Origin: a virus
Lineage: Duplodnaviria; Caudoviricetes
Reading direction: 5' to 3' (one strand)
Length of the DNA: 64,000 bases
Virus record (IMG/VR): IMGVR_UViG_3300031857_000007
Shown: in pieces, positions 1-19,151 of the stretch
Numbering within the stretch: position 1 is the stretch's first letter
Layout: every line of letters starts with the position of its first letter
Position numbers and translations under genes: made by a program
Notes under the pieces: model-generated
Seen by the model: the letters and a program-made list of their open reading frames with translations, nothing else
The model's database searches: none
Told to the model about the DNA's origin: nothing

Positions 1-24
1 CTTGAATTTTACTGTGAGAGTCAT
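1..24 (-). CDS. 5' end of an ORF running off the window (MTLTVKFK...)
   Basis: ATG at 24 just downstream of the sigma70-like promoter at 47-75. Confidence 0.4.
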
Positions 25-46
25 TGTTTTGAATGTTGACCTTAGT

Positions 47-75
47 ATTATAAGGGTTTGACTTGGACAAGTCAA
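47..75 (-). promoter_or_regulatory. sigma70-type promoter TTGACT-N17-TATAAT
   Basis: Minus strand reads ttgact tgtccaagtcaaaccct tataat. Confidence 0.8.
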
Positions 76-100
76 GGTGGACAGTACTGATTCTGTCCTA

Positions 101-173
101 TGCTCCTTGCGTGGATCGAACACGCCTCAGGCGAATTATGAGTTCGCTGCATTCACCAGATTGCTAAAGGAGC
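101..173 (-). tRNA. trnI(CAU): tRNA with CAU anticodon, probably Ile2 (lysidine type); Met not excluded
   Basis: GCTCCTT/AAGGAGC acceptor, GCGAA-CTCATAA-TTCGC anticodon arm, GCGTG-TTCGATC-CACGC T arm; CTCATAA loop resembles Ile2 tRNAs. Confidence 0.8.
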
Positions 174-176
174 AAG

Positions 177-248
177 TAGGACTGGAGAGAATTGAACTCT
201 CTTCACACCGTTATAAGCAGTGGGCCTTAACCAATAGGCGACAGTCCC
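177..248 (-). tRNA. trnI(UAU): tRNA-Ile(UAU)
   Basis: GGGACTG/CAGTCCT acceptor, CACTG-CTTATAA-CGGTG anticodon arm, TTCAATT T loop. Confidence 0.85.
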
Positions 249-287
249 TTGAAACCAGATCTATAGTAGCGGATCTGGAACGATTCG

Positions 288-518
288 TCAAGACCCTTCT
301 TCATGGTCTGTGTGGAGACGTATCAGTTCATCATCCACAGTTGATTCTATTGCGTACTTTATGGTTTCGTTGTAAGGAACTATCACTGCACTATTGCTCC
401 CATCTCGGATAATAAATGATTCGCCATTTTCAACTCTATTCATTAGATTTTCAAAATCTAATTGAAATTCTTCGACTGTAAATGATTGAAGTTCGTTTAG
501 TTCTTGATACATTTTCAT
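288..518 (-). CDS. Phd/YefM-like (antitoxin-fold) small acidic protein
   Basis: FTVEEFQLDFENLMNRVENGESFIIRDGSNSAVIVP fits the Phd/YefM pattern; start trimmed because the longer ORF overlaps tRNA-Pro. Confidence 0.65.
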   Translation of the reverse strand: MKMYQELNELQSFTVEEFQLDFENLMNRVENGESFIIRDGSNSAVIVPYNETIKYAIESTVDDELIRLHTDHEEGS

Positions 519-535
519 AAAGTAATTTTTATGAG

Positions 536-609
536 TCGGAATGATAGGATTCGAACCTACGGCCACTCGCTCCCAAAGCGAGTGCTCTACCAAACTGAGC
601 TACATTCCG
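536..609 (-). tRNA. trnP(UGG): tRNA-Pro(UGG) copy 1
   Basis: CGGAATG/CATTCCG acceptor, CTCGC-TTTGGGA-GCGAG anticodon arm. Confidence 0.92.
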
Positions 610-726
610 TTATTTGTTTCTATGTATAAACATAATACCAGCAAAAGGAACGACTGTCAACCCCATTCCACATAGAAAAAGAAAAAATGGGTTTGAAGCA
701 AGTGATTCTACAACATGAAAAATCAT
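610..726 (-). CDS. 38-aa hydrophobic protein (MIFHVVESLASNPFFLFLCGMGLTVVPFAGIMFIHRNK)
   Basis: Translated by hand; ATGA overlap with upstream stop; one TM-like stretch. Confidence 0.55.
   Translation of the reverse strand: MIFHVVESLASNPFFLFLCGMGLTVVPFAGIMFIHRNK
632..660 (-). promoter_or_regulatory. sigma70-type promoter TTGACA-N17-TATTAT ahead of tRNA-Pro
   Basis: ttgaca gtcgttccttttgctgg tattat. Confidence 0.7.
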
Positions 727-923
727 CTTCCCCTCCAGTTCTTGTACTCATAATACAAGTATTGATCAACTTCGTCAAGTCCCGATAAAGGAGCATTCAC
801 TTCCCAATTAGACCACTCAATGCAAAATTGTCTAATGTCATGATTATGTATAATCCCATGCCCATACATTCGTACAAAAGCAGACATTGCAAAGTTATAC
901 CTTTGTTTATTGTGGATATGCAT
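723..923 (-). CDS. hypothetical protein
   Basis: 66-aa ORF in a tightly coupled run of ORFs. Confidence 0.6.
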   Translation of the reverse strand: MHIHNKQRYNFAMSAFVRMYGHGIIHNHDIRQFCIEWSNWEVNAPLSGLDEVDQYLYYEYKNWRGR

Positions 924-999
924 TATGAAGTCCCCAATTAATAAAAATTGTTATGAGACTAAAAATAAAAACTGCATTGAAAATTGCTGTAGTACTCAT
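907..999 (-). CDS. 30-aa hydrophobic protein (MSTTAIFNAVFIFSLITIFINWGLHNAYPQ)
   Basis: Hand translation; TAATG coupling to upstream stop. Confidence 0.5.
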   Translation of the reverse strand: MSTTAIFNAVFIFSLITIFINWGLHNAYPQ

Positions 1000-1121
1000 T
1001 ACATTCCCCCGTTTCTAAAACCTACAATGTAACCAATAATTAATCCACACATGAAAGCGACAAACAAATAAAGAATATGAGACACAAACTCAATAAATAT
1101 AATCCAATCTGTCGTCGTCAT
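999..1121 (-). CDS. 40-aa hydrophobic protein (MTTTDWIIFIEFVSHILYLFVAFMCGLIIGYIVGFRNGGM)
   Basis: Hand translation; fills gap; TM-like. Confidence 0.5.
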   Translation of the reverse strand: MTTTDWIIFIEFVSHILYLFVAFMCGLIIGYIVGFRNGGM

Positions 1122-1404
1122 CGTCGTCGTCCTCATAAGTAGATGGTTCCTCGAAGAGTTCATTCATTTTTTGTTGCAAAACTCTTTGCTGTAGTTCTTG
1201 AAAATCTTCGTCCGTAAACTTAATCACAAGTAAAGGATCTCCTACTTTAACGTTGTTTAATTCTGGGTGTTTTACTTTAGGACTTTTTGAGTATCCATAA
1301 TGAGCATTCATAATCATCCATCCCTGAACAACCATAGATAAAGCAATCACAACAAGAACAAACCACGGTACTAAAAATATTATTGGAGAGTAATGTTGAG
1401 CCAT
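1090..1404 (-). CDS. membrane-anchored hypothetical protein with acidic C-terminus
   Basis: N-terminal hydrophobic helix, poly-Asp tail. Confidence 0.65.
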   Translation of the reverse strand: MAQHYSPIIFLVPWFVLVVIALSMVVQGWMIMNAHYGYSKSPKVKHPELNNVKVGDPLLVIKFTDEDFQELQQRVLQQKMNELFEEPSTYEDDDDDDDRLDYIY

Positions 1405-1583
1405 GGAAATACTGGCGGAATTACTCCAATGAGTCGAAGAAGACCTTCAGCAAAAAGAGCAAGAACAACCCAACCAACACACATTGAAATAATCGAAGCA
1501 TTACGATTGTGTCTTCGTATGGCATCATCAATCATCTCCTGCACTTCAGTTCTTGTAATAAATTCCTCTTGTTCATGCATCAT
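1380..1583 (-). CDS. small membrane hypothetical protein
   Basis: 67 aa with C-terminal hydrophobic segment. Confidence 0.65.
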   Translation of the reverse strand: MMHEQEEFITRTEVQEMIDDAIRRHNRNASIISMCVGWVVLALFAEGLLRLIGVIPPVFPWLNITLQ

Positions 1584-1729
1584 TTCTCGTCTCCAAAAAA
1601 TTTGGCGAGAGGATCTCTTCTAGTTTTAACAATTTCAACTGCTCTTTTGTAGAACATATTATCGGTGTTACCAGAAGTTTCAAAGGTTTCTTTGATCTTC
1701 ACCCAATTATTATAGGTGTGCTGATCCAT
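1580..1729 (-). CDS. 49-aa hypothetical protein (MDQHTYNNWVKIKETFETSGNTDNMFYKRAVEIVKTRRDPLAKFFGDEK)
   Basis: Hand translation; ATGA overlap with next ORF. Confidence 0.6.
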   Translation of the reverse strand: MDQHTYNNWVKIKETFETSGNTDNMFYKRAVEIVKTRRDPLAKFFGDEK

Positions 1730-1841
1730 AGGTTTATCCCGTGATACTAATATATACTAATCACAGGAATTTCAACGTCAACGAATTGTGTTCAATACGT
1801 AACACTCATTAAGCAATTATTAAATTTGTAACTTATCTAAA

Positions 1842-1926
1842 CGGAAAGGGTGGGATTCGAACCCACGGAAGCTTTCACTTCGCCAGTTTTCAAGACTGGA
1901 GCCTTCAACCACTCGACCACCTTTCC
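1842..1926 (-). tRNA. trnS(UGA): tRNA-Ser(UGA)
   Basis: CCAGT-CTTGAAA-ACTGG anticodon arm, long variable arm, G73. Confidence 0.92.
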
Positions 1927-1938
1927 AATATTAAGTCC

Positions 1939-2190
1939 TTAACGGACTTCAAAATCAAGTCGTCTTACTTTACGTTGACGACGTGCTTCTTGCCAAGCAA
2001 TATCTTGAGAAGACAGCACATTCTTTTGTTGATTTTCTTTTAAAGAGTTTAACATAACAATTCTAGATAAGTCAAGTGCTGAAATCTTATCCCCACGAAT
2101 AGTTGCCATATTAGGACAACCGCAAGTCACTGTTTTTGATTGCTGTCCTGTCAATTCTCTATTACAATCTTTACATCTTATTGAAATCAT
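1939..2190 (-). CDS. small Cys-containing hypothetical protein (CxxC...CxC, possible Zn ribbon)
   Basis: RCKDC...TCGCPN motifs. Confidence 0.7.
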   Translation of the reverse strand: MISIRCKDCNRELTGQQSKTVTCGCPNMATIRGDKISALDLSRIVMLNSLKENQQKNVLSSQDIAWQEARRQRKVRRLDFEVR

Positions 2191-2205
2191 TGTTCTTCAT
2201 CCTTA

Positions 2206-2640
2206 TCACTGTAAATGTGATCTTAGCATCCATACAAACTTGCCATGAGATTCCATTAAGTCTTGAACCAGATTAGCAGTTGCATATTGCTTTTGTGTTT
2301 CTGATTCTTCAGAAATCTCTGCCATTAATTCACAAAACTTGGTGTTATTATCAAGAAGTTCTTGAAGCATTTCTTTCGCTCCAGTTGAACTTGCTGCTTC
2401 TTTAATCTGAGTTACCTCAAGCATTCTTGAAAGAGAACTCAATGGTTTTACATTTAAGTATCTCATATGTTCTGAGAGACGATCAATCTCTTCAAACATA
2501 GTTTCATACTGACCACCAAAGAGTTGATGAAGTTGAGTAAAGTCTTCTCCAACTACATTCCAGTGAAATGCCCAAGTTTTGTGAAACAAAACAAAAAGTG
2601 ATGACTGAGCATCACTTAAGAGTTTAAACAGTTTTTCCAT
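2206..2640 (-). CDS. dps: Dps / ferritin-like DNA protection protein
   Basis: HWNVVGEDFTQLHQLFGGQY...IDRLSEH ferroxidase-type motif; start trimmed to MEKLF because the longer ORF runs into tRNA-Val. Confidence 0.88.
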   Translation of the reverse strand: MEKLFKLLSDAQSSLFVLFHKTWAFHWNVVGEDFTQLHQLFGGQYETMFEEIDRLSEHMRYLNVKPLSSLSRMLEVTQIKEAASSTGAKEMLQELLDNNTKFCELMAEISEESETQKQYATANLVQDLMESHGKFVWMLRSHLQ

Positions 2641-2668
2641 TATACTCTTTTTGTATTTATTTATCAAG

Positions 2669-2740
2669 TGGGAAATATCGGATTCGAACCAATGACTTAC
2701 TGCTTGTAAGGCAGCCACTCTACCGCTGAGTTAATCTCCC
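2669..2740 (-). tRNA. trnV(UAC): tRNA-Val(UAC)
   Basis: CTGC-CTTACAA-GCAG anticodon arm, GGGAGAT/ATTTCCC acceptor. Confidence 0.9.
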
Positions 2741-2743
2741 GTG

Positions 2744-2815
2744 TCCTCTGTCTAGGAATCGAACCTAGTTTCCAAGTGCGTTGTCCGCCTGTCCTTACCA
2801 ATAGACTACCAGAGG
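2744..2815 (-). ncRNA. 72-nt tRNA-like element with intact D/T arms and a non-pairing anticodon arm
   Basis: CCTCTG/CAGAGG acceptor, GTCT-ATTGGTA-AGGAC D arm, CTAGG-TTCGATT-CCTAG T arm; anticodon region GGCGGACAACGCACTTG cannot form a canonical 5-bp stem with U33. Confidence 0.6.
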
Positions 2816-3125
2816 TTGTGGTAGGTGTTGAGGACTTTACCTATGTCCCCACTCTTGACATTCACCCAAGCACCAGCAATAAGCATAGACCTGAGGAGAG
2901 GTTTTGGCACCTACGGAACGGTGATGAGTGCCCATCACCAGCGGAAGACACTTTCCGCAATTTTCACTGCATTAGAGGGCAGTGAATAAGAGGTTTCCAG
3001 TAGCCGTTCTTATCTCCCATAAGGAAGATGTAGGTATCGAACCTACAAAGGACAGTCCCTAACGGAACTGCTGGGAATTCCACTCAGAACCAATATGAAA
3101 GAATCGGACATTTCCAATCCTTTCA
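2816..3125 (-). ncRNA. candidate ~300-nt structured RNA containing a permuted tRNA-like module
   Basis: At least six hairpins plus T arm GTAGG-TTCGATA-CCTAC stacked on ATCTTCC-TTAT-GGGAGAT; no credible ORF. Confidence 0.55.
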
Positions 3126-3126
3126 A

Positions 3127-3198
3127 CTCCCCCACCTCGATTCGAACGAGGAACCTTAGAGTTAACAGCTCTCTGCTCTGCCGTTGAGCTATAGGGGA
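3127..3198 (-). tRNA. trnN(GUU): tRNA-Asn(GUU)
   Basis: CTGTTAA loop, TCCCCTA/TGGGGGA acceptor, G73. Confidence 0.9.
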
Positions 3199-3218
3199 AT
3201 AAGAACCCGAAGGTTCAG

Positions 3219-3290
3219 AGCGGAGTATCGGAATCGAACCGACGACATCTAACTTGGAAGGATAGCGTTCTACCGCTGAACTAACTCCGC
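3219..3290 (-). tRNA. trnG(UCC): tRNA-Gly(UCC)
   Basis: CTTCCAA loop, GCGGAGT/ACTCCGC acceptor, U73. Confidence 0.92.
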
Positions 3291-3300
3291 TTATAAGACA

Positions 3301-3329
3301 ATCATAAACTATTTTAGTTTGATTGTCAA
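3301..3329 (-). promoter_or_regulatory. sigma70-type promoter TTGACA-N17-TATGAT inside an inverted repeat
   Basis: ttgaca atcaaactaaaatagtt tatgat. Confidence 0.7.
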
Positions 3330-3330
3330 G

Positions 3331-3412
3331 TGTCGATGAAAGGACTTGAACCTTCACAGATTAATCTACTGGAACCTAAACCCAGCGCGTCTACCAATTC
3401 CGCCACATCGAC
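3331..3412 (-). tRNA. trnL(UAG): tRNA-Leu(UAG)
   Basis: CTGGG-TTTAGGT-TCCAG anticodon arm, long variable arm. Confidence 0.9.
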
Positions 3413-3476
3413 TTGATGGAGTAAGCGTAATATACCTCATAAGGATATAACAGAGGCTTACCCTCTATCACTTTAT

Positions 3477-3505
3477 ATAGTAACAGACTCATAAGAATCT
3501 GTCAA
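3477..3505 (-). promoter_or_regulatory. sigma70-type promoter TTGACA-N17-TACTAT inside an inverted repeat
   Basis: ttgaca gattcttatgagtctgt tactat. Confidence 0.7.
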
Positions 3506-3506
3506 G

Positions 3507-3580
3507 CGTCCTTTGAGAGATTCGAACTCCCGACACATAGGTTCGTAGCCTACTGCTCTTTTCCACTGAGCTAAAAGGAC
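3507..3580 (-). tRNA. trnR(ACG): tRNA-Arg(ACG)
   Basis: GTAGG-CTACGAA-CCTAT anticodon arm. Confidence 0.9.
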
Positions 3581-3584
3581 AAGG

Positions 3585-3655
3585 CGAAGGATGAGGGATT
3601 TGAACCCCCACTAATGGTTTTGGAGACCATCGTGCTACCATTACACCAATCCAAC
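3585..3655 (-). tRNA. trnW(CCA): tRNA-Trp(CCA) with two U-U mismatches in the acceptor stem
   Basis: ATGGT-CTCCAAA-ACCAT anticodon arm; acceptor GTTGGAT/ATCCTTC. Confidence 0.75.
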
Positions 3656-3729
3656 TGGCTGAGAAACTAGGACTCGAACCTAGATAAACTCCTTCAAAGG
3701 GAGGTGTCCTACCATTAGACGATTTCTCA
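3656..3729 (-). tRNA. trnQ(UUG): tRNA-Gln(UUG), the only one with encoded CCA
   Basis: CTTTGAA loop, U1-A72 TGAGAAA/TTTCTCA acceptor, G73 CCA. Confidence 0.9.
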
Positions 3730-3801
3730 AGCCCAATGTCAGACTCGAACTGACGACCTACTCATTACTAGTGAGTTGCTCTACCACTGAGCTAATCGGG
3801 C
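3730..3801 (-). tRNA. trnT(AGU): tRNA-Thr(AGU), A34 anticodon
   Basis: ACTCA-CTAGTAA-TGAGT anticodon arm, GCCCGAT/ATTGGGC acceptor. Confidence 0.85.
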
Positions 3802-3803
3802 GG

Positions 3804-3874
3804 GGTGACGTATGGGAATTGAACCCATCTAGGTGGTTCCACAAACCACTGCCTTACCACTAGGCTAACGTCAC
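3804..3874 (-). tRNA. trnH(GUG): tRNA-His(GUG)
   Basis: GTGGT-TTGTGGA-ACCAC anticodon arm, C73; G-1 not encoded. Confidence 0.9.
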
Positions 3875-3875
3875 A

Positions 3876-3947
3876 AGGCAGTGGGTAGAATTGAACTACC
3901 GACATAGAGGGTATGAATCTCTTGTTCTACCACTGAACTACACTGCC
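3876..3947 (-). tRNA. trnM(CAU): tRNA-Met(CAU), elongator-like
   Basis: TTCATAC loop, paired G1-C72, no GGG/CCC initiator stem. Confidence 0.8.
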
Positions 3948-3951
3948 AAAG

Positions 3952-4033
3952 TGGACGCTGACCTGCTGGTTACTCTTTCTGAAGAGGGAGGCGTCAGTCT
4001 TTTATATCCTAGCAAGCACCTTGCTGGAGTCCA
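3952..4033 (-). ncRNA. candidate 82-nt three-way-junction RNA between tRNA-Ser(GGA) and tRNA-Met
   Basis: TGGAC/GTCCA closing stem, AGCAAG-GTG-CTTGCT hairpin, CTGAC/GTCAG stem with CTCTT-CAGA-AAGAG tip. Confidence 0.5.
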
Positions 4034-4034
4034 A

Positions 4035-4119
4035 CGGAGAGTAGAGGATTCGAACCTCTGGTGCTGTTACACACAAGACCTTTCCAAGATCTCACCATAA
4101 ACCACTCGGACAACTCTCC
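4035..4119 (-). tRNA. trnS(GGA): tRNA-Ser(GGA)
   Basis: TTGGAAA loop, long variable arm, G73. Confidence 0.9.
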
Positions 4120-4121
4120 AA

Positions 4122-4210
4122 CGGAAGTGGTTGGATTCGAACCAACGGATGCCTATAAAGACATCGGCGGTTTAGCAAACCGCTGCTTTAGACCTCTCAG
4201 CCACACTTCC
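4122..4210 (-). tRNA. trnS(GCU): tRNA-Ser(GCU)
   Basis: GCGGT-TTGCTAA-ACCGC anticodon arm, long variable arm. Confidence 0.92.
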
Positions 4211-4223
4211 ATATCGTAGGTTT

Positions 4224-4307
4224 ATTATTCAGAAGGATTTGAACCTTCATTGCCGTCTCCCAAAACGCAAGTGCTATGACGGAGTGTTACCGTTACACTA
4301 TGAACAA
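4224..4307 (-). ncRNA. tRNA-like element with a 20-nt anticodon loop and G3-U70
   Basis: TTGTTCA/TGAATAA acceptor, GTGT-AACGGT-AACAC D arm, CCGTC/GACGG anticodon stem around ATAGCACTTGCGTTTTGGGA, GAAGG-TTCAAAT-CCTTC T arm. Confidence 0.7.
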
Positions 4308-4309
4308 TA

Positions 4310-4521
4310 TCCTTACGTTGCTTACTCCTTAACTCTACTCATTGAATCTACTTGTTGGACCTAATCGTTGGAATACTCACTGCGTTCAACTTATTACCCT
4401 GCCTCGCCTTGAACGAGTCTGGTTTCTATAGCCTTTGCGTTTGTTAGTAATAAGCATACTGACAGGTTTCTTTTACCTTTCAGTTTTCCGTTCAACCCAA
4501 CTTTGGAATAAAGTTTGGGCA
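4310..4521 (-). ncRNA. candidate ~210-nt structured spacer RNA
   Basis: Several stems incl. CTTATTAC/GTAATAAG enclosing CTCG-TTCAAGG-CGAG; duplicated GTTGAACG. Confidence 0.4.
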
Positions 4522-4523
4522 AG

Positions 4524-4595
4524 TGGAACCGACAAGATTTGAACTTGTGACCGCTCGGTTATCAGCCGAGTGCTCTACCACTGAGCTACGATTCC
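4524..4595 (-). tRNA. trnI(GAU): tRNA-Ile(GAU)
   Basis: CTCGG-CTGATAA-CCGAG anticodon arm. Confidence 0.93.
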
Positions 4596-4599
4596 AGAG

Positions 4600-4673
4600 A
4601 GGGAACAATCGGATTTGAACCGATAACACCATGATCTTCAATCATGTGCTCTACCAATTGGAGCTATGTTCCC
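4600..4673 (-). tRNA. trnF(GAA): tRNA-Phe(GAA)
   Basis: CATGA-TTGAAGA-TCATG anticodon arm. Confidence 0.9.
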
Positions 4674-4677
4674 AAGG

Positions 4678-4751
4678 TCCAGATGGAGGGATTCGAACCC
4701 CCGACCCCCTGTTCCCAAAACAGGTGCGCTACCAAACTGCGCTACATCTGG
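4678..4751 (-). tRNA. trnP(UGG): tRNA-Pro(UGG) copy 2 (divergent from copy 1)
   Basis: CCTGT-TTTGGGA-ACAGG anticodon arm, CCAGATG/CATCTGG acceptor. Confidence 0.9.
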
Positions 4752-4754
4752 ATA

Positions 4755-4826
4755 TAGTCCTAACGGGATTTGAACCCGTGTCTTCACTGTGAAAGAGTGA
4801 TGTCCTCACCACTAGACGATAGGACC
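4755..4826 (-). tRNA. trnE(UUC): tRNA-Glu(UUC)
   Basis: TCACT-CTTTCAC-AGTGA anticodon arm. Confidence 0.92.
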
Positions 4827-4830
4827 AGAT

Positions 4831-5002
4831 GGGAGGGGTATCCCACACGAAGTTACTTACGGATTACGCTTCGTAGCCTTATGAATCCTGCCATCATCCG
4901 ATGGTGGTTAGAAATCCCTCCCCAATTCCAGTTATTACTACGACATTCTTCTGCAAACTGGCAACCTCTGAAGAATGCGTGGGAGTTAGAATACTGACTC
5001 CC
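4831..5002 (-). ncRNA. candidate ~170-nt RNA with two H-type pseudoknots between tRNA-Asp and tRNA-Glu
   Basis: CATTCTTC/GAAGAATG crossed by CCAGTT/AACTGG; GGATT/AATCC crossed by ACGAAG/CTTCGT inside GGGAGGG/CCCTCCC. Confidence 0.5.
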
Positions 5003-5004
5003 AA

Positions 5005-5078
5005 CGACCCATACGGGATTCGAACCCGTGATCTCCACCGTGACAGGGTGGCGTGATAAGCCGCTACACTAATGGGTC
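5005..5078 (-). tRNA. trnD(GUC): tRNA-Asp(GUC)
   Basis: CCACC-CTGTCAC-GGTGG anticodon arm. Confidence 0.92.
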
Positions 5079-5082
5079 AAGG

Positions 5083-5164
5083 TGGGAGGAGCAGGATTCG
5101 AACCTGCGAAGGCAGAGCCGTCTGATTTACAGTCAGATTCCTTTAACCACTCGGAAATCCTCCC
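5083..5164 (-). tRNA. trnY(GUA): tRNA-Tyr(GUA)
   Basis: TCTGA-CTGTAAA-TCAGA anticodon arm, long variable arm. Confidence 0.93.
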
Positions 5165-5168
5165 ACGA

Positions 5169-5241
5169 TGGGTCTGGTCGGGATCGAACCGACGACTTAC
5201 AGGTTAAAAGCCCGCTACTCTACCAACTGAGTTACAGACCC
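5169..5241 (-). tRNA. trnK(UUU): tRNA-Lys(UUU)
   Basis: CTTTTAA loop, GGGTCTG/CAGACCC acceptor. Confidence 0.92.
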
Positions 5242-5370
5242 AAATAATGTGGAAAATATTCAGTTGTCGATGTTCGGTGTGGTCTCTCTCGACCACTTGA
5301 TTAGAATACCACCGTTTGGTCTCTGGGGGGAGATTGGTGGACACTTAGGAAACCGTCACTGGTAACAAAC

Positions 5371-5404
5371 AAAAAAGGGGAGGAAACTTTTGGTTTCTCT
5401 CCCC
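5371..5404 (-). terminator. intrinsic terminator
   Basis: GGGGAGAGAAAC/GTTTCCTCCCC hairpin followed by T run. Confidence 0.7.
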
Positions 5405-5429
5405 TGTCTTTGCTTTTATGGATTACATC

Positions 5430-5531
5430 TTACATATGTCTTTCCATATCCGCAAACAGAGGAGTACCCTCAATATGCCAATAGCGCATATCAAGATTAC
5501 TAAACTGTTTGGTGGGCATTGGATAAGACAT
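5430..5531 (-). CDS. 33-aa hypothetical protein (MSYPMPTKQFSNLDMRYWHIEGTPLFADMERHM)
   Basis: Hand translation; bracketed by TATAAATA promoter and terminator. Confidence 0.55.
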   Translation of the reverse strand: MSYPMPTKQFSNLDMRYWHIEGTPLFADMERHM

Positions 5532-5552
5532 TGTTTTCGACCTAAGTGTGTT

Positions 5553-5583
5553 TATTTATAAGACTTTTTTGTTAAAAAGTCAA
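5553..5583 (-). promoter_or_regulatory. overlapping sigma70-type (TTGACT-N17-TATAAA) and T4 late (TATAAATA) promoter
   Basis: ttgact ttttaacaaaaaagtct tataaata. Confidence 0.7.
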
Positions 5584-5655
5584 CAGGCTCACCAGGAATC
5601 GAACCTGGGACAACCGCTTAGAAGGCGGTGGTTATATCCGCTTAACTATGAGCCC
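5584..5655 (-). tRNA. trnR(UCU): tRNA-Arg(UCU)
   Basis: ACCGC-CTTCTAA-GCGGT anticodon arm. Confidence 0.92.
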
Positions 5656-5661
5656 AAGAGG

Positions 5662-5732
5662 CCTCCCTGTTTGTGCATCGATGAGAGGCATGGGAGGGAC
5701 AGGACTTACACAGAGTTTGGACCCCTGTTGCC
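5662..5732 (-). ncRNA. candidate ~71-nt double-pseudoknot leader RNA
   Basis: GGCA/TGCC, ACAGG/CCTGT, CCTCCC/GGGAGG and TGTGTA/TGCACA pairings, the last two crossing. Confidence 0.5.
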
Positions 5733-5741
5733 TATGAGAAT

Positions 5742-5770
5742 ATTGTACTACTGTTTGGGGCAGGTGTCAA
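5742..5770 (-). promoter_or_regulatory. sigma70-type promoter TTGACA-N17-TACAAT at the head of the tRNA array
   Basis: ttgaca cctgccccaaacagtag tacaat. Confidence 0.8.
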
Positions 5771-6146
5771 CCCATGGAGCACAGAGTCTCATTTCGCCAC
5801 CAAGTAATCTTTGAGCCTCAGAGTTATCTGGAGCTTTCTCAATCAACCGTGGCAAAGGTACTCTAGGTGGTTCTGAGTCTCTTGTCAAGCGTTCGTACTC
5901 TCTGATTGCTTTATCAATATCACGTTCAACTCTTCTCTCCACCACACCAGGATCTTGGAGAAGAACCTCATTGATTATGGTCTGTGGGAACAGAGTCCTC
6001 TGTACCTCGTCTAGAAGGTCCCAGAGGCGCTCCTGAGGCACTCCTGAGCATTGGGAGAGGGTTGCTACGATACCACTGAGTATGACGCTTATAAGGATTA
6101 TCTGCTTCTTATCTGGTTTCTTCTTTCCGAAGTTAAAATTAAACAT
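5748..6146 (-). CDS. membrane-anchored / possible lipoprotein hypothetical protein
   Basis: Basic N-terminus, hydrophobic helix ending ATLSQC. Confidence 0.7.
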   Translation of the reverse strand: MFNFNFGKKKPDKKQIILISVILSGIVATLSQCSGVPQERLWDLLDEVQRTLFPQTIINEVLLQDPGVVERRVERDIDKAIREYERLTRDSEPPRVPLPRLIEKAPDNSEAQRLLGGEMRLCAPWVDTCPKQ

Positions 6147-6195
6147 AAAAAAAGAGGAGTAGCAACCGCTCTCCTCTATTTATTATTCTATTTTA

Positions 6196-6849
6196 TCAAA
6201 CCTCTACCGTGATCAGTTTGGAAGCATACTGATGAGCATACGAAGTGCGGGCACCATGAATGCCCCAACCAATCCAACTATACGCATAGTTCATGTAACG
6301 GTCGATAGACTTACCAGGAGTTTTCATCCTGTCTTCGATACGTTGCCATTGAACCTCAGTCGTTAGATAACGAAGTTGCGTGTGAAGTTCTGATGGAGAA
6401 CCACCATACTTCTTAGCAAAATCACCCAATCCATAATAACGGTTGGCAGATGTCCATTGGATCAGTCCATAACCGCCGTAGCAGCTATGCCAACTGGTCC
6501 TACTACCACCTTCGCAGATATTAGGCACGAACATAGATTCTTGCTTAATATTGCCCAGGATAGTAGCAAGGGCGTTTCTGTCTCTAATACCACGATCCTG
6601 GAAGTATGCCAGGGTAGCATTCTCATGTTCATTACACCCTTTACAAATTAGCCTTTTCTCTTTTGGCATTGGTGTTGGTGCAACCTCTAGGATTGCTGTC
6701 TTCTCAGGTTCAAACTCTTTAATAATTGAATAAGGTTTCTCCACTGGCGGAGGGGGACCTTGCAGTTTATAACTAGAGAATGGCAGTGTTGCCGTATTGG
6801 TTGTAACCATCGCCACTAGAGGAACGGCTACAGTAAAGAAGTTTAGCAT
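6196..6849 (-). CDS. phage-tail-type lysozyme domain protein (cell wall hydrolase) with N-terminal signal-like segment
   Basis: ALATILGNIKQES ... GYGLIQWT ... QLRYL motifs of phage tail lysozyme family. Confidence 0.75.
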   Translation of the reverse strand: MLNFFTVAVPLVAMVTTNTATLPFSSYKLQGPPPPVEKPYSIIKEFEPEKTAILEVAPTPMPKEKRLICKGCNEHENATLAYFQDRGIRDRNALATILGNIKQESMFVPNICEGGSRTSWHSCYGGYGLIQWTSANRYYGLGDFAKKYGGSPSELHTQLRYLTTEVQWQRIEDRMKTPGKSIDRYMNYAYSWIGWGIHGARTSYAHQYASKLITVEV

Positions 6850-6942
6850 TAAAATTAATTGAACTCTACATCCGTATAGAGAAAGGGGTAGACCTTTTTC
6901 TCAAAAGGCAATCTCCACGGCTCTAAATCAACTCAAAGTCTC
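6850..6942 (-). promoter_or_regulatory. structured 5' leader of the lysozyme gene (candidate cis-regulatory RNA)
   Basis: Follows TATAAT at 6943-6948; competing hairpins CCTTTT-GAGA-AAAAGG, GAGAAA/TTTCTC, CTCTATAC-GGAT-GTAGAG. Confidence 0.45.
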
Positions 6943-7001
6943 ATTATAAAAAAACCCACCTTAAGTGGGTTTAAACATTATAAGTTTTTATTTAGGATTA
7001 G

Positions 7002-7175
7002 TCAAGATTGCGGTTCTATGGAAATAATTTCCAATTCACTTTCATCCGGATCAATCCATTCGTAAAATTCTGCAAGAATAGCGCGAGCGTCATCTATAGA
7101 AACATTTTTATCTGCAGCACGATCAAGAGACCACTCCCGAACATGAGCCACAATATCTTCAGTCGTCGCGTTCAT
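7002..7175 (-). CDS. 57-aa hypothetical protein
   Basis: MNATTEDIVAHVREW...; start trimmed to avoid long overlap. Confidence 0.65.
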   Translation of the reverse strand: MNATTEDIVAHVREWSLDRAADKNVSIDDARAILAEFYEWIDPDESELEIISIEPQS

Positions 7176-7602
7176 AATAATCTTTTCGGAAGTATCTATT
7201 AAGTATGTTGGAATTGTAGTACCTCGGGGTTCCGTCGTCAAGTCCTTCTGTAAGGACATTGTTGAAGAAGAGTTGTCTTGTTTCTTCAAAGTTTGTTTTG
7301 CCCTTTGTTTTATGTAATGATAAAATAGTGCGCGTAAAATTCTCCCTACCATATTTTTCTATATCTTCTTTGAGTTCTGGACATGATCCGTAATATTTTT
7401 TCCAATCAGACTCTGATTTAACCTTTCTAGATTTTCCCTTCGGTGTGCGGAAACTCCAGAAATATTTTCTACCAATATAATCCCTACCAGTTTTAGTGCA
7501 ATGTATATGATATACAAAACCAAAATAATCCTGTATATCACTTGAACCAAATACTTTTCCATTGTAGGTCCAAGGATTTTCATAGTCAATATCTATACTC
7601 AT
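7159..7602 (-). CDS. GIY-YIG family endonuclease (EndoII/Seg-like)
   Basis: GFVY-x10-YIG, YYGS, and YN.N motifs. Confidence 0.8.
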   Translation of the reverse strand: MSIDIDYENPWTYNGKVFGSSDIQDYFGFVYHIHCTKTGRDYIGRKYFWSFRTPKGKSRKVKSESDWKKYYGSCPELKEDIEKYGRENFTRTILSLHKTKGKTNFEETRQLFFNNVLTEGLDDGTPRYYNSNILNRYFRKDYYERDD

Positions 7603-7741
7603 CAATAATATCAAGAACTTCGTTCAGATATTTATTAGCAAGTCCTTTGGCGTCCCAACTTGGTTGATCTTTATATAGTCTGTCTTTTAACTTTAATACA
7701 CGAACTTTTATTTCGTCTTTAGTTAGTTGATTTTTAGGCAT
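7586..7741 (-). CDS. 51-aa hypothetical protein (MPKNQLTKDEIKVRVLKLK...VLDIIDEYRY)
   Basis: Hand translation; fills gap. Confidence 0.6.
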   Translation of the reverse strand: MPKNQLTKDEIKVRVLKLKDRLYKDQPSWDAKGLANKYLNEVLDIIDEYRY

Positions 7742-9081: not shown

Positions 9082-11359
9082 ACTCTCCCTCCTCTACTGA
9101 ACTTAACTCGCTTAGCAAATCTTCAAGATTGGGTTTTTCTTCTACGACTTCATCAGTCTTAATATCATAAGTGTTTTGGTAGTAAGAAGTCTTCCACCCG
9201 TACTTGTATGTAGTCAAAAAGTCATTTGCCATTACAGAAGTAGGAACTTCATTGTTGGCATAATTTTCTGGATTATACGACCAGTTTCCAGAAATCGCTT
9301 GATCGAAGAATTTTTGCATAACTGCAACAATATTAATATAACCACGATTGCTAGGCATATTCCAAAGAATCGTATAATTGTTCTTAAGTGTGTGGTATTG
9401 CGGAACAATTTGCTTGAGCGGACCTTTCTTCGATTTCTTAATGGACAAGTAATCTCTAGGTGGTTCGATTCCATTGGTTGCGTTTGACACAACGGAACTG
9501 CTCTCCGATGGCATCTGTGCGGACAATGTTGAGTGCCTGAGACCATATTCCAAGATAGACGCTCTAAGAGATTCCCAGTCATGCTGATAAGAAATGGATG
9601 AAATTTCGTCTACGTCTTTTTTATAAGTATCAATTGGAAGAATGCCATCAGCATACTTAGTACGTCCAAAGTATTCGCAGTATCCCTTTTCTTTAGCAAG
9701 TTGATTGGAAGATTTCAACAGATAATACTGAAATGACTCAGAAAGTCCGTGAACTGCATCCCATGCCTCTTGCGAATCATAGTTATATCCAAGTTTTGCC
9801 AAATAGTGGGCAAGACCAATATAACCAATACCAAGCGAACGACGGGCCTTGGTGGCGATTTCTGCAGCTTCTACGGGGTATTTTTGATAATCAATCAACT
9901 CGTCTAAACCACGAACAGAAAGATCACAAAGTTCCTCAAGTTCTTCATCAGACTTTACCTTACCAACATTAATTGCAGAGAGAATGCAAAGTGCAATTTC
10001 TCCACTTGTATCATCAATATGTTGAATAGGATCTGTAGGTAGAGTAATCTCTTGACAAAGATTACTCATATTAACTTTATCTTTAAATGAGGAATGAGAA
10101 TTACAATGGTCAATGTTCATGATATAGACACGACCCGTTTCCGCACGTTCTTTGAGAAGGTTGAGAATGAGTTCTTGTGCCTTAACAGTTTTTTTCTTAA
10201 TGGTCGGATCTTTTTCATATGAAACATAGAGATCGTCAAACTCAGGGAATCCAAAGCTATCATAAAGTCCAGGGACATCATGTGGGGAGAAAAGCGTAAT
10301 CTCAGCATCCTGAATGAACCTCTCATAGAAGAGTTTGCTGATTTGAATACTGTAGTCAAGTTTGCGAACACGATTATCCTCCGTACCTTTATTATTCTTT
10401 AGTACAAGAATATCTTCTATTTCTTGGTGCCAGATTGGGAAGTGTACTGTCGCGGATCCACCTCGTATGCCATTTTGCGTGCAGCATCGGACAGTCGCTT
10501 CAAACTTCTTGAGAAATGGTACAACACCTGTATGTTGAACTTCTCCACCTCTGATTTTACTGTTGATCCCACGGATGCGACCAGCGTTGATACCGATCCC
10601 CGCCCTCTGTGCAACGTATCGGCCAATAGCCATATCAGAACTAAAGATACTATCGAGGGTGTCATCAACGTCAACAAGGACACAGCTAGCAAATTGTCTA
10701 AGCGGAGTTCGCACTCCCGCCATGATTGGTGTTGGGATGTTGATTTTGTGTTTGGAGATTGCGTCATAATATCTCTTTACATATGACATACGGGTTTCTT
10801 TTGGATACTCTGCAAAAATTGTCAGAGCAATCATCATGTACATAAACTGTGGGGTTTCATATACGCCGCCACTACTTCTATCTTGCACGAGGTACTTATC
10901 AACGACCTGACGTAAACCTGCATAAGTGAAGAGATAGTCACGGTCATGATCAATAAAACTATCAGCTCGTACAATCTCTTCTTGAGAGTATTTGTTAAAA
11001 ATGTCACTATCATAAACCTCTGCATTTACGCAGTTATAGATATGCTGCTCCAATGAAGGGAGTTCCTTCATTTTTCCATAAAGTTGTTTGCGAACTGCAA
11101 AAAGAAGAAGACGGGCAGCAACATATTGATAATTTGGGTGATCCAAATCAATAAGATCACTAGCACTACGAATCAGAATTTCCTGAATCTCTGCCGTGGT
11201 AATTCCGTCATAAAATTGAATGCCAGAGGTCATCTCAACTTGACTAGCAGAGACGCCTGCAAGACCCTTACATGCCTCTTCAACCATTAAATGCATCTTG
11301 TCTAGGTCAAGAGACTCAATTCGCCCATCACGCTTTTTTACTTTGGTTCCGTTGCTCAT
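9062..11359 (-). CDS. nrdA: ribonucleotide reductase class Ia alpha subunit
   Basis: ATP-cone, PTPIMAG, SCVL, SNLCQEI, MPSESSS, C-terminal CESC. Confidence 0.97.
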   Translation of the reverse strand: MSNGTKVKKRDGRIESLDLDKMHLMVEEACKGLAGVSASQVEMTSGIQFYDGITTAEIQEILIRSASDLIDLDHPNYQYVAARLLLFAVRKQLYGKMKELPSLEQHIYNCVNAEVYDSDIFNKYSQEEIVRADSFIDHDRDYLFTYAGLRQVVDKYLVQDRSSGGVYETPQFMYMMIALTIFAEYPKETRMSYVKRYYDAISKHKINIPTPIMAGVRTPLRQFASCVLVDVDDTLDSIFSSDMAIGRYVAQRAGIGINAGRIRGINSKIRGGEVQHTGVVPFLKKFEATVRCCTQNGIRGGSATVHFPIWHQEIEDILVLKNNKGTEDNRVRKLDYSIQISKLFYERFIQDAEITLFSPHDVPGLYDSFGFPEFDDLYVSYEKDPTIKKKTVKAQELILNLLKERAETGRVYIMNIDHCNSHSSFKDKVNMSNLCQEITLPTDPIQHIDDTSGEIALCILSAINVGKVKSDEELEELCDLSVRGLDELIDYQKYPVEAAEIATKARRSLGIGYIGLAHYLAKLGYNYDSQEAWDAVHGLSESFQYYLLKSSNQLAKEKGYCEYFGRTKYADGILPIDTYKKDVDEISSISYQHDWESLRASILEYGLRHSTLSAQMPSESSSVVSNATNGIEPPRDYLSIKKSKKGPLKQIVPQYHTLKNNYTILWNMPSNRGYINIVAVMQKFFDQAISGNWSYNPENYANNEVPTSVMANDFLTTYKYGWKTSYYQNTYDIKTDEVVEEKPNLEDLLSELSSVEEGECESCAV

Positions 11360-19078: not shown

Positions 19079-19151
19079 TGGAGAATAGGGGACTCGAACC
19101 CCTCACCCCCGCCGTGCAAAAGCGGTGCTCTACCAAATGAGCTAATTCCCC
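19079..19151 (-). tRNA. trnA(UGC): tRNA-Ala(UGC), solitary
   Basis: TTTGCAC loop, GGGGAAT/ATTCTCC acceptor with G3-U70, A73. Confidence 0.93.

Follow-up and report, generated by a model that had tools for sequence, protein, structure and literature searches.

The 64,000-nt viral DNA stretch IMGVR_UViG_3300031857_000007 (Duplodnaviria; Caudoviricetes), referred to here as the window, carries a transfer RNA (tRNA) array in which neighbouring genes are mostly separated by 0–3 nt, and the question raised by positions 2,744 to 5,732 is what fills the much longer gaps found within it. Codon usage, or the replacement of tRNAs destroyed by defence nucleases, is the usual explanation for tRNA genes in phages. 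The source of the window is a T4-like, S-PM2-like freshwater cyanomyovirus; its nearest cultured relatives are S-PM2 and S-CREM1, with about 80–84% identity in the tRNAs only, and the DNA runs containing the stretch are labelled mainly as freshwater or lake metagenomes. The array comprises 25 tRNA genes by ARAGORN (25–26 with Rfam), all on the minus strand from 5656 to 100. CCA is encoded by none of them, and no transfer-messenger RNA (tmRNA), permuted forms included, was called by ARAGORN. Gene order in S-PM2 is identical, but only 0–2 nt stand at the sites of the long spacers, which are therefore insertions relative to that phage. Both tRNA content and spacer length vary widely among the arrays of relatives. 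The reading favoured here, with a probability of roughly 0.6, is that small structured RNAs, in a changeable set, use the array as a launch pad.

Long spacers and their borders

Seven long spacers listed in an earlier note on this DNA (2744–2815, 2816–3125, 3952–4033, 4224–4307, 4310–4521, 4831–5002 and 5662–5732; below, in this order, S1, modules A–D, S3, S4, S5, S6 and the abiF leader) were all located as claimed, each beginning or stopping 0–12 nt from a tRNA end. The list was incomplete, with gaps at 3291–3329, 3413–3505 and 5243–5582 missing from it. The absence of a credible open reading frame (ORF) was confirmed, since the sole candidate, of 42 aa at 4394–4522 within S5, changes mostly non-synonymously in relatives and its coding potential was rejected. 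The description of the spacers as filled with structure fared less evenly: single-sequence folding was significant in 2816–3125 (z = −4.7) and not in the remaining named spacers (z values of −0.6 to −1.9), and the evidence for structure must therefore be comparative. Homologues were collected from 80 IMG/VR loci found through an array-adjacent protein and from about 170 more found by motif scans. Compensatory base changes, which support structure, were found in S1, in modules C and D, in the leader hairpin that precedes abiF and in parts of S5 and S6. Only three of the seven spacers match Rfam, so that the set belongs in part to known families and is not wholly explained by them; the other four are without a match at E ≤ 5. 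The modules behave as cassettes, occurring separately and in other orders and combinations on more than 100 IMG/VR contigs, with S6 on 24, S3 on 22, S5 together with S4 on 12 viral and 7 metagenome contigs, and S1 at more than 50 loci. The comparison supports the view that the spacers are conserved structured RNA modules and not junk.

The position of the modules relative to the tRNAs was scored for every module copy in all viral loci, with a neighbour counted within 12 nt. Module D was followed by S1 in 15 of 16 copies, the S6 core by tRNA-Glu in 24 of 25, the leader S9a by tRNA-Lys in 30 of 31, the abiF leader by a tRNA in 59 of 69, S5 by an S4-type look-alike in 5 of 6 and S3 by tRNA-Met in 4 of 5 scored copies. 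Module C preceded tRNA-Val, -Thr, -Met or -Leu in 13 of 17 copies and module D in 2 of 17. The borders proposed earlier were upheld, module 3′ ends lying flush with the 5′ ends of tRNAs or look-alikes even where the partner tRNA changes. Non-tRNA RNAs lying flush between tRNA-type elements that do not encode CCA present the layout of tRNA punctuation, and because the modules end at tRNA 5′ ends and CCA is absent, we infer that they would be released by RNase P and RNase Z-type cuts, this being the best reading of the arrangement.

The spacer at 2816–3125 divides into modules A, B, C and D, which are found singly or recombined elsewhere. Module A (3093–3125, minus strand) is a 13-bp hairpin that directly follows tRNA-Asn in 18/18 copies; its score is terminator-like, with a U tail that is weak. 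Module B (2990–3092, minus strand) is a four-hairpin RNA with a look-alike of the tRNA T arm (GGUUCGAUACC); it is very conserved, with compensatory changes at 3 pairs among 10 versions, and is covered by a 243-nt contig from an RNA library, which is weak evidence. Module C (2916–2989, minus strand), also present in the cultured phage S-SRM01, consists of three hairpins with conserved loops, and 8 of its 23 pairs show compensatory changes (0/500 shuffles). Module D (2816–2915, minus strand) is a three-way junction closed by GUAGGUG/CACCUAC, with 7 of 24 pairs compensatory (0/500 shuffles). An identity of this spacer with manA, or with a manA-like RNA, was rejected, as the manA model RF01745 gave no match at E ≤ 10 in 2735–3130 or at E ≤ 5 in 1–7000 and the spacer did not align to the manA of S-CREM1; the same search detected manA in S-CREM1 at 96.6 bits.

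Two further spacers hold junction RNAs. S3 (3948–4033, minus strand) is an 86-nt RNA ending at tRNA-Met; it is highly conserved in 13 further variants, with one compensatory pair change (CUCU/AGAG to CGCU/AGCG). S6 (4828–5003, minus strand) lies between tRNA-Asp and tRNA-Glu and consists of a variable first hairpin, a covarying second hairpin and a junction domain of about 95 nt (4831–4922) that hardly varies. This domain is closed by GGGGAGGG/CCCCUCCC, a stem in which one contig (L338) has a double compensatory change; the loop of the second hairpin, GCCAGU, is able to pair with a downstream AACUGG. Covariation in the second hairpin was found by inspection of the alignment rows, and the helix was not called by RNAalifold.

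tRNA look-alikes and the S5–S4 pair

S1 (2744–2815, minus strand) and S4 (4224–4307, minus strand) are tRNA-shaped RNAs that score 32.2 and 45.4 bits, respectively, above the gathering score of 29 of the Rfam tRNA model RF00005, and their arms covary. S1 has intact acceptor, D and T arms, but in place of the anticodon arm it forms a 4-bp stem that contains a bulged A and is capped by a 5-nt loop, GAYAA. This arm is kept in 29 versions, and U33 and a 7-nt loop are lacking. In S4 a 20-nt loop (4258–4277) occupies the place of the anticodon loop. A readable anticodon (5-bp stem, 7-nt loop, U33 and purine 37) is found in neither, and since neither holds a 7-nt anticodon loop, S1 and S4 cannot decode. 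The term tRNA mimics, used in the earlier note, was therefore apt for these two spacers, which pass the Rfam threshold without an anticodon loop; the same absence argues against the decoys for anticodon nucleases that it also proposed.

S1-type elements occur, unannotated, in S-PM2 (between tRNA-Thr and tRNA-Ala, at about 155092–155188 of its record), S-CREM1, S-RIM8, S-RIM32, DSL-LC03 and S-SZBM1. Among 29 distinct versions, 10 of 20 pairs show compensatory changes, including all four pairs of the mini-stem; the observed covariation score was attained by 0/500 shuffles and collapsed in slid controls. ARAGORN assigned S1 relatives to Leu(caa), His(atg) or '???', differing between genomes, and did not call S4 at all. 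The acceptor, anticodon-position and T stems of S4 differ compensatorily between scaffold types, and its loop CAUAGCACUUGCGUUUUGG (19–20 nt) is identical in all tRNA-like copies (12 viral and 7 metagenomic, on four scaffolds). The inconsistent ARAGORN identities of the look-alikes, the resemblance of the D and T arms of S1 to those of tRNA-Gln and the great differences between the arrays of relatives would suit an origin of look-alikes and spacers as decaying tRNA genes or recombination scars, left unselected in a fast-shuffling array. Decay would preserve neither the compensatory changes that keep the S1 mini-stem and the stems of S4, C and D, nor loops that are invariant over 29–46 distinct versions, nor an S4 loop that is identical across four scaffolds. 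Neutral decay is therefore largely refuted and is considered very improbable.

S4 is preceded by S5 (4308–4522, minus strand), a 215-nt RNA with 93–95% identity in six contigs and an invariant segment CAAACGCAAAGGCUAUA at about 4429–4445. This segment is identical even in a distant contig, L344, in which the rest of S5 is about half identical and the helix around the segment is changed on both sides at 5 of 10 pairs. The 15-nt core of this segment, AAACGCAAAGGCUAU, was found 131–166 nt upstream in 7/7 metagenome copies; an exact 20-mer of S5 searched in IMG/VR gave no match. L344 is part of a very large phage contig (L344/L371, 455 kb), where the divergent S5–S4 unit (L344:4607–5012) follows one of three copies of tRNA-Asn in an array where Pro and Leu tRNAs are repeated as well. 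Complementarity between the S5 segment and the S4 loop comprises 5 bp, a 2 × 2 mismatch and 8 bp, with a duplex energy of −16.8 kcal/mol that is matched by 8% of shuffles and is not significant alone. The pairing shows no covariation because neither side varies. The joint conservation of both partners suggests a loop–loop pairing or a shared ligand. A similar complementarity between loops of D and S1 was rejected, as it extends over only 4 nt and showed no covariation in the alignments of D and S1.

The complementarity of S5 and S4, together with the closed multi-helix junctions formed by several modules, would also be expected if the spacers were ribozymes or pieces of one large fragmented RNA that reassembles, as was considered in the earlier note. 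No partial match to an Rfam ribozyme, RNase P, tmRNA, 6S or intron model was found at E ≤ 5, and the modules occur singly and in varied combinations, independently of each other, which a split RNA could not tolerate. Both identities were rejected on these grounds, and the chance that either holds is judged to be very slight. A Y RNA/Ro identity was likewise rejected, since matches to YrlA (RF02553) were sub-threshold (24 bits against 69) and fell on true tRNAs only; no TROVE (Ro) gene was present in five related records, of which three are complete. S1 and S4 are most likely built-in RNase P handles for the RNAs upstream of them, S1 for D and S4 for S5, and are possibly also partners of these RNAs.

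An orphan abiF RNA in the array leader

The first RNA of the array is a copy of the abiF RNA motif (RF03085; 5661–5697, minus strand), with a score of 48.0 bits against a gathering score of 37 over model positions 1–37 (E = 8.6e-6 over the whole window). It stands 4 nt upstream of tRNA-Arg(UCU) (5583–5656, minus strand; ARAGORN and Rfam), the first tRNA of the array, and follows a strong promoter and a separate hairpin. The promoter (TTGACA-17-TACAAT; 5742–5770, minus strand; 11/12 in a consensus scan) lies within the end of an ORF at 5748–6146, and its −10 box is kept as TACAAT or TATGAT in relatives. Hairpin 1 (5700–5734, minus strand) has an invariant loop, GGUCCAAAC, and compensatory changes at 6 of 10 pairs in 46 distinct versions; over the whole leader (5657–5736) 10 of 21 pairs are compensatory in 46 versions. 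Within the abiF motif, pairs 43:72, 44:71 and 45:70 of the outer stem and 47:63 of the inner stem change on both sides while the loop is invariant. The 37-nt hairpin of RF03085 (AbiFr/RCd22), with its conserved loop, 3′ bulge and covarying stems, is thus retained in the phage copy. Its surroundings differ: bacterial copies are promoter–hairpin–U-tract units, and in the canonical system the RNA lies in the 5′ region of an abiF (Abi_2) gene, whereas in the phage an extra hairpin precedes the motif, the U-tract terminator is replaced by a tRNA that begins 4 nt downstream, and no abiF gene follows.

The abiF RNA is the antitoxin of AbiF, a HEPN RNase of a type III toxin–antitoxin and abortive infection system, and AbiF has been proposed as an ancestor of Cas13 (bioRxiv 10.1101/2025.04.15.648962; PMC12737573; PMC13064643). 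An AbiF profile was built with jackhmmer, seeded on the bacterial control L104 (Pfam Abi_2, E = 8.6e-56), and gave no toxin in the 64-kb window, where tRNA-Arg follows the RNA in place of a toxin gene. Among the matches listed, the profile hit 57/120 bacterial motif loci, compared with 1/197 viral loci, and Pfam Abi_2 gave no match in eight related phage records, of which four are rated complete. The single viral locus with both the motif and an AbiF-like ORF (L246, IMG/VR, 5375 nt; E = 2.9e-96) represents a canonical AbiF system on a viral contig. By a loop-based pattern, 67/117 viral matches lie 3–9 nt upstream of a same-strand tRNA, compared with 1/123 bacterial matches among those listed; 52 of the 67 come from a single phage lineage, that with hairpin 1, so that the viral proportion overstates independence. 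The bacterial denominator is slightly inflated, as the pattern matches in three Veillonella loci (L083, L088 and L114) fall inside a nicotinate phosphoribosyltransferase gene and are due to chance. The remaining 15/67 copies lie outside the hairpin-1 lineage, some of them on contigs of 47–51% GC with only one or two tRNAs. Ten tRNA identities, and in addition a look-alike, were found downstream of viral abiF RNAs. Hairpin 1 was present in 60/113 viral abiF loci and, among the matches listed, in 0/118 bacterial loci. In the IMG/VR loci L205/L210 a cyanophage-type abiF leader precedes, by 87 nt, a gene for an SLH/OprB porin and not a tRNA. The motif is patchy among close relatives of the window, being present in the L051 genome, and such patchiness is typical of accessory cargo. 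An abiF small RNA was listed for cyanophage S-CREM1 in 2023 with no mention of a tRNA junction or a role (PMC9964418).

The presence of the antitoxin RNA in the absence of its toxin gene suggests that the phage abiF RNA is likely a decoy antidote, which would keep a host or prophage AbiF toxin off during infection. The decoy function put forward in the earlier note is accordingly plausible for one module, with an AbiF HEPN toxin as its target and not an anticodon nuclease. Such a function has a parallel in the pseudo-ToxI of phage PhiTE, an RNA mimic of the ToxI antitoxin for which neutralisation of ToxIN was shown genetically (PMC3475682). Both are phage-borne, toxin-less type III antitoxin RNAs; PhiTE pseudo-ToxI belongs to the ToxIN family and consists of tandem 36-nt repeats, whereas the activity of the cyanophage RNA is predicted from its resemblance to abiF. 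The hairpin could instead serve an unrecognised HEPN or Cas13-like partner encoded by the phage, or act as a protein-binding or processing site of the leader. This reading, which we consider unlikely, draws on the second conserved hairpin that always accompanies the phage version and is missing from bacterial abiF RNAs, so that the phage unit is not a simple copy of the bacterial one; on the host AbiF that a decoy presupposes; and on the many phage proteins of these genomes that are without a family. It is countered by the lack of an Abi_2 match in the window and the eight related records, by the retention of the conserved loop and bulge letters of the family at a score above the curated threshold, and by orphan tRNA-adjacent copies without hairpin 1 in unrelated viral contigs.

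Release from the array and its implications

The mechanism proposed for the launch pad is read from the anatomy of the array. A few sigma-70-type promoters would give rise to polycistronic transcripts in which each long spacer would represent one or more self-contained RNA modules. The 5′ part of a module, as a rule a stable hairpin, would begin just past the discriminator base of the preceding tRNA, and the module would end 2–5 nt (up to 12) ahead of the next tRNA or non-decoding tRNA shape. An RNase Z-type cut would set its 5′ end and an RNase P cut its 3′ end; since the tRNA genes lack CCA, the host cuts that mature the tRNAs would also free the modules with defined ends. In this scheme S1 and S4 would provide the RNase P cut for D and S5, respectively, and the toxin-less abiF RNA would act on AbiF. 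Modules B, C, D, S3, S5 and S6 are taken, as a working guess, to be further trans-acting accessory RNAs because their patchy distribution is typical of host-takeover or counter-defence cargo.

Promoters are few in the array, with those at 5770, 3505 and 3329 and a further one that serves a small ORF. The promoter of the gap at 3413–3505 (minus strand; TTGACA-17-TACTAT with TG) is followed by a structured leader of tRNA-Leu(UAG) (z = −3.9), found at 49 loci, and that at 3329 lies in the gap 3291–3329 (minus strand). Within the gap at 5243–5582 lie a conserved 33-codon gene, with a promoter and a terminator, and a conserved leader. The leader, S9a (5243–5362, minus strand), ends at tRNA-Lys and is conserved in sequence in 31 copies. 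The gene (5377–5582, minus strand) consists of a TTGACT-17-TATAAA promoter, an ORF at 5430–5531 and an intrinsic terminator; the ORF is open in 27 variants (32–33 aa), with in-frame indels and a conserved LDCRYWHIEG..PLFA..RHM core, and in S-PM2 the annotation of the counterpart region places an ORF on the other strand.

Three gaps holding promoters, the fact that module A and the first hairpins of S5 and S6 immediately follow tRNA 3′ ends, and the attachment of every module to a downstream tRNA or look-alike would fit modules that act in cis as tRNA leaders or trailers (promoters, processing enhancers, 3′-protection hairpins or attenuators) and that would be functionless once excised. The same tRNAs are expressed with spacers of 0–2 nt in relatives, S-PM2 among them, and the modules are therefore not needed for tRNA maturation. 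One and the same module is moreover joined to different tRNAs, of four identities for C and of ten or more for abiF; the conserved loops and covarying stems indicate specific recognition, and one module is a known trans-acting antitoxin RNA. A purely cis-acting role is therefore regarded as unlikely.

Several observations tell against the launch pad itself. Sequence variation in module B, S3, the S6 core and most of S5 is too low to yield covariation. The dense array would put any insert near a tRNA, so that abutment alone is weak for each module, and RNase P could be impeded, not helped, by stable helices that stop 2–5 nt short of a tRNA 5′ end. Contigs from the RNA libraries of four studies cover S1, B, S3, the small ORF and part of S6; they carry no end or strand information, DNA carry-over is possible and uncovered bins are uninformative. 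No abiF RNA occurs in the two closest complete relatives with S4–S6, and it is therefore dispensable. A decoy presupposes AbiF in the likely hosts, freshwater picocyanobacteria, and no cyanobacterium was found among at least 120 bacterial abiF loci in the matches listed; binding of the phage RNA to AbiF is putative.

Other genes stand near the array. A ferritin-like gene (2206–2718, minus strand) with its own strong promoter (2667–2639) directly follows tRNA-Val. About 1.5 kb upstream of the array, beside the gene for the small subunit of ribonucleotide reductase, an ORF (7159–7614, minus strand) carries a SegE-type GIY-YIG homing-endonuclease domain (E = 6.6e-54), and this endonuclease may contribute to the shuffling of the cassettes. 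A lone tRNA (19079–19151, minus strand; 63 bits in Rfam) is located among large ORFs far from the array.

The separate elements of this arrangement have precedents. In mitochondrial tRNA punctuation, MALAT1–mascRNA and the tRNA-like/pre-miRNA units of murine herpesvirus 68 (MHV68), RNase P and RNase Z marks free neighbouring RNAs, and mascRNA and the MHV68 elements are non-decoding tRNA shapes. These cases are eukaryotic or organellar, and processing in the cyanophage is predicted from the sequence layout. The T4 RNAs RNAC and RNAD are encoded in the tRNA gene cluster and mature along with the tRNAs. The function of these species 1 and 2 stable RNAs has been called unknown (PMC9697503). They resemble the cyanophage modules, by description, as small stable RNAs of a T4-type phage; the cyanophage set is larger and modular and includes non-decoding tRNA shapes and an antitoxin RNA. 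The structured RNAs manA, wcaG and GOLLD also occur near phage tRNAs (PMC2864571) and are likewise lodged in phage tRNA islands, but the modules of the window match none of their models. An independent parallel is the island of S-CREM1 (9745–10643, within L343; OP535465.1, 9300–11300), which combines wcaG, tRNA-Met, an S1-type look-alike (locus 669–740), tRNA-Leu, manA, tRNA-Asn, abiF and tRNA-Gly; manA abuts the tRNAs on both of its sides, and abiF ends 4 nt before tRNA-Gly.

Small RNAs in phage tRNA clusters, tRNA punctuation and the mimicry of antitoxin RNAs are thus already known separately. In the literature searched, which does not extend to the individual 10,006 candidates of a structured-RNA survey of IMG/VR (PMC10690425), a modular set of RNAs supported by covariation, non-decoding tRNA shapes as candidate 3′ partners and an orphan abiF RNA fused to a tRNA appear to be undescribed. 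A wider proposal is that the arrays of cyanophages and of some unrelated phages are expression platforms for swappable counter-defence or host-takeover RNAs freed by host tRNA-processing enzymes, with abiF as the first identifiable member and S5–S4 as a new kind of two-part RNA, in which the enlarged S4 loop would pair with an equally invariant internal loop of S5; this is advanced tentatively, as a possibility of less than even odds.

The non-decoding tRNA shapes of the well-studied phages S-PM2, S-RIM8 and S-CREM1 are given changing identities by gene finders, which affects annotation and the counts of phage tRNAs. C, D, S3, S5–S4 and S6 are candidate new RNA families with clear structures, some of them present in cultured phages. 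If the decoy function of the abiF RNA is true, it would be a second natural case of RNA-based escape from type III toxin–antitoxin defence and, as AbiF is the proposed ancestor of Cas13, would offer a natural RNA inhibitor scaffold for this protein family. As this locus shows, phage tRNA arrays bear, beyond tRNA genes, other conserved RNAs placed where RNase P and RNase Z would release them.

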